Assembly (NCBI GenBank): GCA_024686085.1
Contig: JAIBDT010000004.1
Span: forward strand, 2,213-66,212
Direction: 5' to 3'
DNA length: 64,000 bases
Origin: Loktanella sp.
GTDB lineage: Bacteria; Pseudomonadota; Alphaproteobacteria; Rhodobacterales; Rhodobacteraceae
The position numbers were made by a program, and so were the translations under genes. Below the pieces are notes generated by a model, which worked only from the letters and a program-made list of their open reading frames with translations, ran no database searches and had not been told where the DNA came from. Positions 7,229-55,953 of this stretch are shown in pieces. The first letter of the stretch is position 1. Every line of letters begins with the position of its first letter.

Positions 7229-7612
7229 GCGCTTCGCGCGTTCGACCCTGAAACTGTTCTCGACAGTTTCCGAGACGGGTCTCACCCACCCCCACGGGGC
7301 GGGCGCTTTCAGCACCAGCCCCTCGGTTCGGGCGCGGCTGGTAATTAAGCGGGTCGTTTGCATCTATCGCTTCCCCTGCGCTGCGCGCGTTCGGCCCTGA
7401 AACTGTCCTCGACAGTTTCCGAGGCGGGCCTCACCCCCTCGGTTCGGGCGCGGCTGGTAATGACGGGGATCGTTTGCATCCGCACTGGGCTCCGCCCGTT
7501 CGAACCTGAATTGATCCACTGGATCAATTCCTAGACGGTTCTCACCCCCCTGCGCTGCGCGCGTTCGGTCCTAGAAACTGTCCTCGACAGTTTCTTTCAC
7601 GGACCTCACCCC
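7229..7612. repeat. cluster of four ~60-bp structured palindromic repeats (REP/REPIN-like) plus a 27-bp direct repeat
   Basis: Units at 7229-7287, 7378-7438, 7489-7548, 7552-7612: GCGCT(G/T)CGCGCGTTC-5bp stem-inner hairpin-5bp stem-TCACCC; CCCCTCGGTTCGGGCGCGGCTGGTAAT at 7319-7345 and 7435-7461. Confidence 0.9.
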
Positions 7613-53572: not shown

Positions 53573-54214
53573 ATGGACCCCAAAGTTGCAGCCCTGCTCG
53601 CTAAACCTCATTGGCACAATGAACGCAAAATCTTGCGCGACGTTTTGTTGGGCTGTGGCTTGACTGAAACCGTCAAATGGGACGGGCTTTGCTATACTTA
53701 CAATGATGCAAATATTGTGATGTTCTACGGGCTGAAGGCCTATTGCGGCCTTAGCTTTTTCAAAGGCGCCTTGATGAACGACCCTGAGGGGCTGTTGTAT
53801 CAACGGTCTGCGCAAATGCAGGCCGCGCGGCTGTATCGCTTTACCAGTCTGGACGAAGTCACCGCCGCGACCGCCCAAGTTAAGGCGTTTGTGGCCGATG
53901 CAATCGCGATCGAATTGGCGGGTCTCAAGGTTGAGATGACTGCCAAGGATGATTTGGTTTATCCTCAAGAATTGATCGACCGCATGGACGCGAACGACGC
54001 GTTCGCCGCTGCATTCGAGGCGCTGACCCAAGGCCGCAAGCGCGGCTATGTGCTGCATATCGCAGCCGCCAAACAGCCTGCCACACGTTTTGCCCGTATC
54101 GATAAATACGTCGCGCGCATTTTTGACGGCAAGGGCTTGTATGATTGCGTTTGCGGCTTGTCGAAAAAGCCGCCGCGCTGTGACGGTTCGCACAAGAGGT
54201 TAGATCGCTCTTAG
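53573..54214 (+). CDS. DUF1801/YdeI-OmpD-associated protein with C-terminal CDGSH motif
   Basis: ETVKW, FFKGAL, FEALTQGRKRGY, ending CVCGLSKKPPRCDGSHK. Confidence 0.85.
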   Translation: MDPKVAALLAKPHWHNERKILRDVLLGCGLTETVKWDGLCYTYNDANIVMFYGLKAYCGLSFFKGALMNDPEGLLYQRSAQMQAARLYRFTSLDEVTAATAQVKAFVADAIAIELAGLKVEMTAKDDLVYPQELIDRMDANDAFAAAFEALTQGRKRGYVLHIAAAKQPATRFARIDKYVARIFDGKGLYDCVCGLSKKPPRCDGSHKRLDRS

Positions 54215-54388
54215 TTTGGCTTTCGTGGCACACTATAAAAAATGCCCGCTGCTGCTAAGTTGATACACGATATACGGCATTGGCGCGTTGGTGGTGTCCA
54301 TGGTCAAGCGGCCAGCCACCACTGAGGTGGTCCGGCAAATTCGGACAGCGTGCTAAGATATATTCAACCCGAACGAATGAATACGAGA

Positions 54389-54682
54389 ATGACAAAACGA
54401 CGGAACTTTTCAGACCAGTTTAAGGCTGCTGTGGCGCTTGAGGCGCTGCGCGGTGACAAGACGGTTCAGGAGATTGCAGCCAAGCGCCAGCTCCACCCAA
54501 CGCAGGTGAGCACATGGAAACGTCAGGCTATCGAAGGCATGGCAGGCGGTTTCTCTGACAAGGTTAAAAAGGCTGAGAATAAGTACGGCGAGATCAAAGA
54601 GTTGCACGCCAAGATTGGTCAGCTGGCGGTGGAGAATGGTACGGGGGCTGACGCGGCCCCACTGGGGCCACGGTCCCCCTAG
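54389..54682 (+). pseudogene. IS3 OrfA (HTH), C-terminus disrupted by a hairpin insertion
   Basis: MTKRRNFSDQFKAAVAL...HPTQVSTWK...ELHAKIGQL then an aberrant tail. Confidence 0.85.
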
Positions 54683-54684
54683 CC
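54638..54684. repeat. 47-bp hairpin insertion 1 in the IS (GGCCCC-ACT-GGGGCC core)
   Basis: GGTACGGGGGCTGACGCGGCCCCACTGGGGCCACGGTCCCCCTAGCC at the orfA/orfB junction. Confidence 0.75.
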
Positions 54685-54734
54685 TTGTCACAAGGGCTAA
54701 AGCGGTGAGTCCATCAAAACGCCGCGAGATGATC

Positions 54735-54773
54735 TGTCACCTGGCAGTCGATCCTTCGGGATCGATGAGAGGG
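54735..54773 (+). mobile_element. 39-bp miniature hairpin element, copy A (in frame)
   Basis: TGTCACCTGGCAG-TCGATCC TTCG GGATCGA-TGAGAGGG between EMI and RKDN. Confidence 0.8.
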
Positions 54774-55043
54774 CGCAAAGATAATATAAAACTGAGCCTG
54801 ACGCGCCAGTGTAAGCTGCTCAAGATCAGCCGTTCGTCGATCTATTACACACCAGTTGGGGTGAATGCTGAGACACTTGCGCTGATGCATGAGATTGATC
54901 GGGTGTTCACCAAATACCCGTTCTTCGGAAGCCGCCAGATCGCTGCTTACCTTCCTCAGTCGGGCTTCTCATCGGGGCGGCATCGTGTTCGACGCCTGAT
55001 GAACCTTATGGGGTTGCAGGTCATCTACAAGGGGCCGAACACC

Positions 55044-55084
55044 CGCTGACCGGCAATGGTTTGCAAGTAAACCATGAGAGAGGG
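55044..55084 (+). mobile_element. 41-bp miniature hairpin element, copy B (stop plus frameshift)
   Basis: CGCTGACCGGCAA-TGGTTTGC AA GTAAACCA-TGAGAGAGGG between PNT and KKHP. Confidence 0.8.
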
Positions 55085-55114
55085 GGCAAGAAGCACCCAC
55101 AGCACCGCATTTAT

Positions 55115-55156
55115 CGCTCGCCATTGTGCTTTAACCAATGGCGCACAAAAGCTCGC
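55115..55156. repeat. 42-bp hairpin insertion 4 in the IS (in frame)
   Basis: CGCCATTG-9nt-CAATGGCG; adds RSPLCFNQWRTKAR between RIY and LLRK. Confidence 0.7.
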
Positions 55157-55483
55157 CTGCTGAGGAAGCTCGCAATCACGCGGCCCAATCGGGTTTGGTG
55201 CCGCGACATCACCTACATCCCCGTTAAAAGTGGCTTTCTGTATCTGGTCGCAATCATGGATTGGGCGACCCGCAGGGTGCTGTCCTGGCGGCTTTCCAAT
55301 ACGCTTGATGCCAGCTTCTGTGTGGAGGCTTTGGAGGAGGCAATCGCCCGATATGTCAAGCCAGAGATAATGAATGCGGACCAAGGCAGCCAATATACAG
55401 GCGCTGGCTGGATCACGACTTTGACCAACGCTGACATCAAAATCTCAATGGACGGGCGGGGCCGCTATTTGGACAATATCTTC

Positions 55484-55522
55484 CCCTCTCATCGTTTGCA
55501 GGCAAACGACTGCCGGGCAGTG
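55484..55522 (-). mobile_element. 39-bp miniature hairpin element, copy C (reverse orientation, in frame)
   Basis: Reverse complement CACTGCCCGGCAG-TCGTTTGC CT GCAAACGA-TGAGAGGG between DNIF and IERLW. Confidence 0.85.
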
Positions 55523-55953
55523 ATCGAACGGTTGTGGCGGTCGCTGAAGCAAGAGGCCGTTTACCTGCATAAAATCACCGACGGCTTCCAAGCGGAACGG
55601 ATTATCAATAACTGGATTGGGTTCTATAACGCGGAGCGCCCTCACACGGCCCTTGATAAGCGCACTCCGGACATCGCGTACTTCGGCCAAGCGGAGACAC
55701 GAAAAGCGGCATGAACACACACCAGATGCAACTTAGCCAAGCCGCAAAACTGTCCTAAAAAGCAGGAACACTTCACTTGACCAACTTCTCCCAATGTTGG
55801 GGTGCGGCTATTCGTGCGGTGCGCCGCATTTTGTCGGCAAAAACATCGCTATGCGAGACCAAGCAGCCGTCTGCCGCAGCGTAGAATTTCCGCAAAATCC
55901 AAGACTACTCGACATTCGATAGTCTTTGTAAGAGAGGCCCAGCCAGAAAGGGT

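Follow-up and report, generated by a model that had tools for sequence, protein, structure and literature searches.

Hairpin elements of 37-41 nt located within insertion sequences of Rhodobacterales

A decayed IS3-family element and its inserts

The window, i.e. the whole 64-kb stretch of DNA which was analysed, contains at positions 54323..55776 of the forward strand a decayed insertion sequence (IS) of the IS3 family, which hosts all the inserts described here. Its ends, visible in the sequence itself, were defined by alignment to copies found in other genomes: an intact relative (G023:C148), a relative present in nine copies in G036, and, in a sister species of Yoonia (G469:C82), a copy of the same IS which is 90% identical. 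The element is 1454 bp long, about 200 bp of which are made up of inserted hairpin elements, and is bordered by inverted repeats of the TG..CA type, reading TGAGGTGGTCCGGCAAATTCGGACAG on the left and, as reverse complement, TGAAGTGTTCCTGCTTTTTAGGACAG on the right. These repeats, the presence of OrfA and OrfB, and the rve, rve_3 and HTH_21 domains detected in close relatives are features of the IS3 family. The intact relative encodes an OrfA of 92 aa and an OrfB of 285 aa. In the window, the orfA remnant (54389..54682, + strand), taken from the list of open reading frames and aligned with the intact OrfA of G023:C148, now stops at a TAG located within insert Z. The remnant of orfB, coding for a DDE/rve transposase (54685..55714, + strand), is split by insert B into two frames, corresponding to the open reading frames 54615-55049 and 55061-55714; when the sequences flanking the inserts are joined, it is 70-79% identical to the OrfB of G023.

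Comparison with all the aligned homologues revealed five extra segments within the host IS, named Z, A, B, D and C in the order in which they occur. The first-pass annotation had described three hairpin inserts, A, B and C, whose positions and sequences were confirmed by reading them in the window; Z and D are additional. The borders proposed for A, B and C coincide with clean gaps in the alignments to G036, G023:C148 and G469:C82, the segments are absent from intact homologues, and alignment to the empty homologous sites revealed no target duplication, as had also been proposed.

Insert A (54735..54773, + strand) is 39 nt long and in frame; it is composed of a degenerate left end, TGTCACCTGGCAG, the hairpin TCGATCC-TTCG-GGATCGA, whose fold was computed, and the right end TGAGAGGG. 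Its site is empty both in G469, exactly at GATGATC^CGCAAAG, and in the copy found in G474. Insert B (55044..55084, + strand) is 41 nt long and shifts the frame by +2; its left end CGCTGACCGGCAA is followed by the hairpin TGGTTTGC-AA-GTAAACCA and by TGAGAGAGGG, and the corresponding site is again empty in G469 (GAACACC^AGCAAG) and in the G474 copy. Insert C (55484..55522, - strand), the best preserved of the three, is 39 nt long, in frame and formed by CACTGCCCGGCAG, the hairpin TCGTTTGC-CT-GCAAACGA and the same right end as A; its boundary is ATCTTC^ATCRAACGG, and all nine G036 copies run uninterrupted across the site. A and C are free of stop codons and add the residues CHLAVDPSGSMRG and PSHRLQANDCRAV, respectively. 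The scores obtained with the covariance model described below are 51.3 bits for A, 47.8 bits for B and 54.4 bits for C, with E values of about 1e-9 to 1e-11. The three inserts are the sole matches to the pattern CYGGCAR-N18-TGAGAG in the window, and none of 100 dinucleotide-preserving shuffles contained a match. The right end shared by A and C was also found in a palindrome with a 32-bp stem, located at 11 contig ends, and the 14 nt ATCTTCCCTCTCAT are shared with the IS flank plus insert C; no further likeness was detected, and these matches were treated as coincidence.

The two remaining inserts belong to different families. Insert Z (54639..54684, unstranded), a gap relative to three homologues, is a 46-nt GC-rich nested hairpin of the form GGGGG..[GGCCCC-ACT-GGGGCC]..CCCCC. 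It takes the place of ATTTT in the frameshift window GATTTTTTG, with a net gain of 41 nt; this window is intact in the G469 and G023 copies and is destroyed by Z in the copy analysed here. Insert D (55116..55151, unstranded), also a gap relative to homologues, is 36 nt long, in frame and composed of GCT, CGCCATTG-TGCTTTAAC-CAATGGCG and CACAAAAG; it represents a third family, with a fold z of -3.1.

The inserts differ among copies of the same IS. The G469 copy contains none of the five inserts of the window, but two others at sites of its own. The G474 copy carries Z and D at the same sites and lacks A and B, which indicates that Z and D are older, and that A and B were acquired later. Dead IS copies keep gathering hairpin elements, and the A/B/C family, together with Z and D, has helped to make the IS3 element of the window a dead relic.

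Structure, target sites and size of the family

A covariance model was built from A, B and C and run on fetched loci, and then on 81 genomes of the genus Yoonia. The element was detected in 31 of them, at 1-7 copies per genome. A strict pattern scan, performed on one genome per species, revealed at least 119 loci across Rhodobacterales and in a few outsiders. Almost all of the listed loci belong to Rhodobacterales (Leisingera, Sulfitobacter, Ruegeria, Puniceibacterium, Octadecabacter, Salipiger and others), and a few to Vreelandella, Pseudohongiellaceae, Parvibaculum, Micavibrio and Labrenzia. A hairpin is present in all 81 matches from the wide scan which were inspected, so that none appears to be due to chance. 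Cultured Rhodobacterales carry the element in 12 complete plasmids, which speaks against an assembly artefact. In the source assembly (3.0 Mb, 109 contigs) strict pattern scans detected nothing beyond A, B and C, while a looser search on the left end identified three more members (C21:366, C100:10562 and C82:33551), which have the right end CGAGAGGG and are all located within IS3-family genes. Another element similar to A, B and C breaks the DDE motif of a different IS3 relic in G001, and diverged relatives occupy chromosomal sites which are conserved, namely the region downstream of groEL and the rRNA spacer. No match was found in the phage collection searched, and a search of the open-access full-text literature revealed neither the sequence of the element nor hairpin elements confined to insertion sequences. 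The family is thus widespread in marine Rhodobacterales and apparently previously undescribed. With more than 100 further copies, the description initially proposed, of a non-autonomous mobile unit of very small size, whose ends are conserved and whose hairpin core is variable but always paired, holds well beyond the window.

The consensus reads C-A/G-C/T-TGCCCGGCAG, followed by the hairpin and by (T)GAGAGGG, for a total length of 37-41 nt. The conserved ends are asymmetric: the 5' end, CAYTGCCCGGCAG, is itself a small palindrome, CACTGCC-C-GGCAGTG, while the 3' end, (T)GAGAGGG, is placed 8 nt past the foot of the hairpin. The hairpin is 7-9 bp long and varies in sequence while its pairing is maintained; discrete hairpin subtypes set the length of the element. 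The 37-nt subtype contains TGCATG-TTT-ACATGCA or TCGCTGC-TT-GCAGCGA, the 38-nt subtype TCGAAAC-GCA-GTTTCGA and variants of it, the 39-nt subtype TSGTTTGC-TT-GCAAACSA, and the 40-nt subtype TTGATTGC-AAAG-CAATCAA.

Among 74 distinct copies, 98.4% of the cells of a 7-bp helix are paired. Compensatory changes were observed at each of the seven pairs, with 150 doubly changed cells, to be compared with 48 in shuffles, and the paired cells drop to 53% or less when the partner strand is slid. This pattern of covariation indicates that the hairpin is under selection. Identical elements of 37-40 nt are found at many unrelated sites, one 37-nt variant at 11 of them; these are copies produced by a process which preserves the ends and requires the stem. 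The lengths of 37, 38 and 40 nt, i.e. three of the four common ones, break the reading frame of the host gene, which the 39-nt subtype preserves; selection for open frames through the element amounts to a weak excess, with 4.6 open frames against 3.9-4.1 in controls.

Inverted pairs of elements, a few tens of nt apart, were found in L070 and in G446:C14. At a homologous site of two 82%-identical IS110-type copies (L026 and L070) flanks and ends are identical, while the hairpin core belongs to a different subtype; L035 and L088 similarly share a homologous IS site and identical ends with different cores, and core swaps with the same ends occur also at an IS481-like and at an IS5 site. The IS110-type case suggests either the re-use of hot sites or the exchange of cores, and homologous sites with identical ends and different cores are not predicted by a simple cut-and-paste model.

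Target sites were defined on pairs of filled and empty copies, comprising the five sites of the window, two in G469, one in G001, an IS91 site and one IS256 pair at 97% identity. No target sequence is duplicated or lost in these pairs, and the word CRTC preceding the element is present in the empty sites, i.e. it is derived from the target. Among the matches listed, 106 unique sites show C at -4, A or G at -3, T at -2 (62%) and C at -1 (88%), followed by G at +1 (77%). With about 3.7 bits in total the motif is weak, and represents a preference rather than a strict tetranucleotide such as that of IS608. Empty sites do not fold better than nearby controls (p = 0.38), so that a search for hairpin-shaped targets was negative. 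Insertion in both orientations, as already suggested by the inserts of the window, is borne out by 22 elements in sense and 24 in antisense relative to the host gene. Such an even distribution excludes an intron acting at the RNA level and fits a DNA-level, strand-oriented event; on the evidence of the filled and empty sites, insertion is strand-specific, directly after CRTC and before G. Other RNA-level readings, such as a ribozyme or a known RNA family, were also rejected, as no Rfam match was found and both orientations are equally common.

Location within insertion sequences and possible mechanisms

The family is neither a matter of IS3 sequences nor a general invader of genes, but is almost confined to insertion sequences of many unrelated families, a point which the first-pass annotation had missed. 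About ten IS families, including IS3, IS5, IS256, IS66, IS91, IS110, IS21 and IS481, hold nearly all copies. In Yoonia, reading by eye the translations obtained after joining the flanks revealed IS3, IS256, IS66, IS5, IS1182, IS91 and IS481-like genes, together with one TraG-like gene. When the flanks of 79 loci from the wide scan, among the matches listed, were compared with Pfam, 24 of the 25 commonest families were transposase families, including rve, DDE_Tnp_1 and its relatives, Y2_Tnp, IS66, IstB, IS110 and IS240; the sole exception was the plasmid-type ImpB/MucB domain. When 20 loci were sampled, each from a different genome, 16 proved to lie within IS genes confirmed by Pfam, and two more are likely to do so, on the basis of a weak IS630-type match and of a location at the 3' end of an IS110-type element, respectively (reading frames evaluated by eye). 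All six copies of the source genome are located within IS3-family genes. Matches on plasmids overlie annotated IS256, IS5 and IS66 transposase genes, and a few copies are found in plasmid genes, beside insertion sequences.

Copies of the same IS with the same insert, 96-98% identical, were detected in members of different genera, and are shared by an alphaproteobacterium and a gammaproteobacterium. The element thus travels with its IS between genera of Rhodobacterales, and occasionally further, and most copies are probably stranded passengers brought by their IS. In Sulfitobacter plasmids, empty relatives of an IS256 element are present in multiple copies, while one filled copy was seen, in which a 39-nt insert lies in frame within an annotated, apparently intact coding sequence. 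Since empty copies are multiple and the filled one is single, and since the reading frame is lost with three of the four common lengths, the inserts look like lesions rather than benefits.

The families of Z and D have a similar location. A Z-like element is present in a different IS3 member in G023, and the Z family was found in five of the 81 Yoonia genomes, four times in IS3 and once in IS5; a Z-like insert occupies the same IS5 site in Leisingera. The Z core was not found in a class-wide sample of 400 genomes, and the family is confined to close relatives. D-like hairpins recur in other IS relics, often beside members of the main family. Three unrelated families of tiny hairpins, represented by A/B/C, Z and D, thus share the same IS niche.

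The account towards which we lean, as somewhat more probable than not, is that A, B and C result from three separate insertions of a miniature element of single-strand type, which is mobilised in trans and parasitises insertion sequences, and that the enzyme is of the HUH kind. According to this model, a structure-specific enzyme acting in trans would cut and join the element in the form of a folded single strand of DNA; most of the genomes containing copies would not encode this enzyme. Insertion sequences would be preferred since they pass through single-stranded or extrachromosomal states, such as those occurring in copy-out replication, rolling circle replication or on conjugative plasmids; they would then amplify and export their passenger, the element being in effect a parasite of parasites. 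Two features point in this direction. A length of 37-41 nt would be too short for handling as bent double-stranded DNA, which favours the cutting of a folded single strand. In addition, relaxases, IS200/IS605 transposases and RAYTs act on substrates in which a hairpin is followed by 8 nt and by the cut site; the hairpin of the element, the 8 nt and the boundary may correspond to this geometry, and would favour a single-strand enzyme acting in trans. The location of the host IS on a chromosome-like contig was counted against the single-strand account of the niche; the weakness of the target motif, and the occurrence of one variable hairpin in place of two subterminal ones, were counted against the model as a whole.

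The search for a partner gene was negative for the candidates evaluated. A Y1/HUH transposase of the RAYT type had been suggested as a partner of the element, but Y1_Tnp (PF01797) does not track it, being found in seven of the 81 Yoonia genomes and in three of the 31 which contain the element. The same is true of Y2_Tnp (IS91), present in 11 of the 31 genomes with the element and in 11 of the 50 without it, and of small stand-alone GIY-YIG genes, present in about 19 of the 81 genomes, four of which contain the element. In G000 the GIY-YIG search gave only a match of UvrC size, and G446, with seven copies of the element, contains none of the Y1, Y2 and small GIY-YIG genes. IS91 was evaluated as a possible parent, as the element lies just upstream of some IS91-type transposase genes, but the site is empty in other copies; together with the lack of association with Y2, this identifies IS91 as a victim and not as the parent.

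An extension of the trans-mobilised model, which we regard as tentative, is that a guild of at least three unrelated families of 36-46-nt hairpins (CAYTG...GAGAGGG, the GC-rich Z, and D with its CGCCATTG) may target insertion sequences of any family. They would be guided by the physical state in which DNA transposes, and not by its sequence; the hairpins would be moved by a class of enzymes new to transposition in these bacteria, and would act as a brake on IS activity.

The main rival explanation for the IS-only niche is random insertion followed by hitch-hiking. If the element inserted anywhere after CRTC, copies in ordinary DNA might be lost or remain private to a lineage, while those in insertion sequences would be multiplied and exported, and would hence be seen. 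The target motif is short and common, several genera, and even a gammaproteobacterium, contain the same IS with its insert, the diverged relatives downstream of groEL and in the rRNA spacer occupy conserved chromosomal sites, and a targeting device is not known. On the other hand, the 106 unique sites, among the matches listed, are those left after the removal of repeated flanks, and 80-90% of a sample fall in IS genes; six copies out of six in a 3-Mb genome lie in IS3-family DNA, and five inserts (A, B, C, Z and D) are crowded within 1.45 kb. Intergenic DNA, moreover, far exceeds IS DNA, and a 39-nt hairpin should often be tolerated there, as REPs are. On balance we consider the absence of a preference unlikely, though it deserves serious weight, and give more credit to a genuine preference of the element for DNA which is being transposed or transferred.

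It may also be supposed that no dedicated transposase exists, and that hairpins are copied by template switching during replication, or by short-patch gene conversion, the hairpin and the ends providing the microhomology for landing. This would agree with the failure of any partner enzyme to track the element, with the swapped cores found between identical ends and flanks at the IS110-type, IS481-like and IS5 sites, and with the similar behaviour of three unrelated hairpin families. It does not account well for ends which are asymmetric and exact, for strand-oriented insertion at CRTC^G, for targets having neither homology to the element nor an excess of fold potential, or for identical 37-40-nt units at many unrelated sites, and is therefore judged improbable.

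Even less probable, in our opinion, is a system encoded by the host or by plasmids, which would deliberately disable insertion sequences by means of short hairpin cassettes. A niche so strikingly restricted to insertion sequences across some ten unrelated families, the disruption of the reading frame by most subtypes (37, 38 and 40 nt) and the IS256 case, with one filled copy among multi-copy empty relatives, would be in keeping with such a role. However, there is no known candidate gene, the elements are not linked to any locus, unrelated transposase genes have no sequence in common by which such a system could recognise them, copy numbers are low (1-7 per genome), and filled insertion sequences still spread. 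The idea that the hairpins are native to the insertion sequences and serve them, for instance as regulatory stem-loops or frameshift stimulators, is close to refuted: Z lies exactly on the IS3 frameshift window and one annotated, apparently intact IS256 transposase gene contains a 39-nt element in frame, but intact multi-copy relatives do without hairpins, the positions are scattered, in both orientations, over unrelated IS families, and the frame is usually broken, the orfA of the window ending inside Z.

If the niche of the trans-mobilised element reflects a true target preference, the element would recognise the condition of "being a transposon" in some ten transposase families unrelated to each other, and this would point to a shared physical intermediate of transposition which can be sensed. 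Parasites of insertion sequences would represent an added trophic level in bacterial mobile DNA, and may limit the expansion of insertion sequences in the plasmid-rich Roseobacter group. With 37-41 nt, defined ends and a free hairpin, the element is among the smallest discrete mobile units, and could provide a clean substrate for finding a new structure-specific enzyme acting on single-stranded DNA. In practical terms, many transposase genes of Rhodobacterales which are annotated as "frameshifted" or are oddly long are accounted for by the inserts, and these may be used as markers to trace the exchange of insertion sequences between genera.

Comparison with known systems

REPs and REPINs, mobilised by RAYT (TnpA-REP, a Y1 HUH enzyme), are single hairpins of 20-40 nt with a GTAG tag, which are extragenic, present in hundreds per genome, inherited vertically and flank RAYT genes. 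Publications on these systems include PMC3333891, PMC3116915 and PMC8266576. The element resembles the REP/REPIN-RAYT system in its single stem-loop, in its conserved unpaired flanks, in the absence of target duplication, in being non-autonomous, and in the occurrence of hairpin subtypes and inverted pairs. In contrast, it has no GTAG tag, its ends being CAYTGCCCGGCAG and (T)GAGAGGG; it is present at 1-7 copies per genome, inside transposase genes, spreads horizontally and does not co-occur with Y1 genes.

REPs with a CGTC tag correspond to the NTS/SRM hairpin repeats, which are cut by the Ssn GIY-YIG single-strand nucleases (PMC3733652, PMC11893778); they are frequent in alphaproteobacteria, have an oriented non-palindromic flank, and had no transposase of their own at the time of the first report (PMC3733652). 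In these repeats CGTC is part of the repeat itself and abuts a stem of 8-9 bp, starting with AT and followed by a CCA/CYRG tail (PMC3733652, PMC11893778). The CRTC at the 5' flank of our element recalls this tag, but belongs to the target; it is followed by the conserved 5' end, the stem beginning 13 nt further on. Nor do small GIY-YIG genes of the ssnA type track the element, as reported above.

Members of the IS200/IS605 family and PATEs contain two subterminal hairpins, insert at a strict target word, and rely on a Y1 TnpA present in the genome. The likeness lies in strand-specific insertion 3' of a short word without duplication, in oriented ends defined by hairpins, and in a cut at a fixed number of nt from the hairpin foot; the element, however, has one variable hairpin plus a conserved 15-nt palindrome, a loose CRTC target and no Y1 partner.

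The Rickettsia palindromic elements, which are mentioned in PMC3733652 and to which the first-pass annotation had likened the inserts, offer a loose parallel. RPE-1 is 100-150 bp long and occupies many housekeeping genes of one genus. Both are palindromic inserts within coding genes, sometimes in frame and tolerated, but the element is 37-41 nt long and its hosts are transposase genes; the comparison stands for the 39-nt subtype, which keeps the frame, and fails for the 37-, 38- and 40-nt subtypes, which are equally common and do not.

A derivation from DDE transposons, as for MITEs, does not fit ends which are not inverted copies of each other, nor seven filled/empty pairs without target duplication. 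Integron attC sites differ by their R''/R' cores (RYYYAAC ... GTTRRRY), absent here, and by their length of 57 nt or more, compared with 37-41 nt. A search of positions 54200-55900 against Rfam 15 gave best matches of 12-17 bits, with E >5 and below the gathering score.

Mitochondrial GC clusters and double-hairpin elements, like the very small dispersed repeats of cyanobacteria (Elhai et al. 2008), are mobile units of some tens of bases. They are similar to the present element in that they can sit inside genes and other mobile elements, and differ from it in sequences, hosts and structures. To our knowledge, none of them has been reported as confined to insertion sequences. Overall, a REP or an IS200/IS605 end comes nearest to the element in the way it works, yet the features by which these are defined set the element apart from both. 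The element belongs to miniature hairpin mobile DNA, an already known kind, and its niche within insertion sequences is unusual and well supported.

Additional hairpin inserts in the IS3-family element

Besides the mini-element inserts A, B and C, the decayed IS3-family element contains two further hairpin inserts, each belonging to a different family. Insert Z (window 54639-54684) is a GC-rich nested hairpin, distinct from A, B and C, which takes the place of the IS3 frameshift window. Four other Yoonia genomes carry this element too, within IS3 and IS5 transposase genes, and in Leisingera aquimarina a Z-like insert occupies the same IS5 site.

Insert D (window 55116-55151), representing a third family, has the structure CGCCATTG-loop-CAATGGCG. 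Relatives sharing the tail CAyCAATGG were detected in other IS relics (loci L059, L094, L035, L140, L152 and L194), in the copy of the host IS in genome G474, where the relative occupies the same site as insert D, and in the genome under study, G000, at contig C15:32306.

Other hosts and chromosomal relatives of the mini-element

In Rhodobacterales, IS91-type (Y2) transposase genes are preceded by a tyrosine-recombinase gene (L057, L086, L164, L029) and the mini-element, where present at these loci, lies in the short spacer that separates the recombinase gene from the transposase gene. An in-frame 39-nt mini-element is also present in a CDS for an IS256 family transposase (L196 1479-2729), which the annotation gives as intact, on plasmid pDSM14862_d of Sulfitobacter indolifex. 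Multi-copy relatives of this IS256, 97% identical, are carried by S. dubius and S. faviae plasmids, and lack the 39-nt mini-element.

Lower-scoring relatives, of the form AAAGCGGCAG-hairpin-TGAGAGC(TTTG), occur in several species of Yoonia, at chromosomal positions that are conserved. They are found 33 nt downstream of groEL (L048 1501-1539, also L051 and L053) and in the 16S-23S spacer, flanked by the two tRNA genes (L039 1501-1539). Their outer stem is CAAAGC/GCTTTG, in place of the CCC/GGG of the mobile form. These sequences may represent the source motif or, alternatively, ancient copies that have become domesticated.

Other repeats in the genome and in the window

Outside the window, 11 G000 contigs (C4, C6, C9, C21, C35, C39, C42, C73, C84, C85 and C99) terminate in a stretch of roughly 140 nt from a multi-copy repeat, which probably represents the end of a high-copy IS left unassembled. 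This stretch contains a perfect palindrome with a 32-bp stem (..AATCTTCCCTCTCATTTTTAAGACCC-13 nt-GGGTCTTAAAAATGAGAGGGAAGATT..), shares TGAGAGGG with the mini-element and has 14 nt in common with the insert C junction.

Just upstream of the window, at C101:190-1420, lies another IS3-family relic, which is more distantly related (55-60% protein identity) and bears stops and deletions; it is adjoined by a repeat some 75 nt long (GTAACTGAACGACTACCGGCTGACGCCGGTAGGTTCCC...), of which the genome has about 17 copies. The palindrome AAACCTTATCCGCGGATAAGGTTT, the most over-represented 12-mer set in the whole G000 genome (about 16-30 copies), is a separate REP-like family.

Within the window, a group of four intergenic units, each some 60 nt long and with conserved flanks (CGTTCGRNCCTGAA .. 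TTCCNAGACGGNYCTCACCCC), is found at 7229-7612. Their outer 5-bp stem covaries, and the inner hairpin is variable. The architecture is of the same style as that of the IS-borne elements, but the sequence is different.
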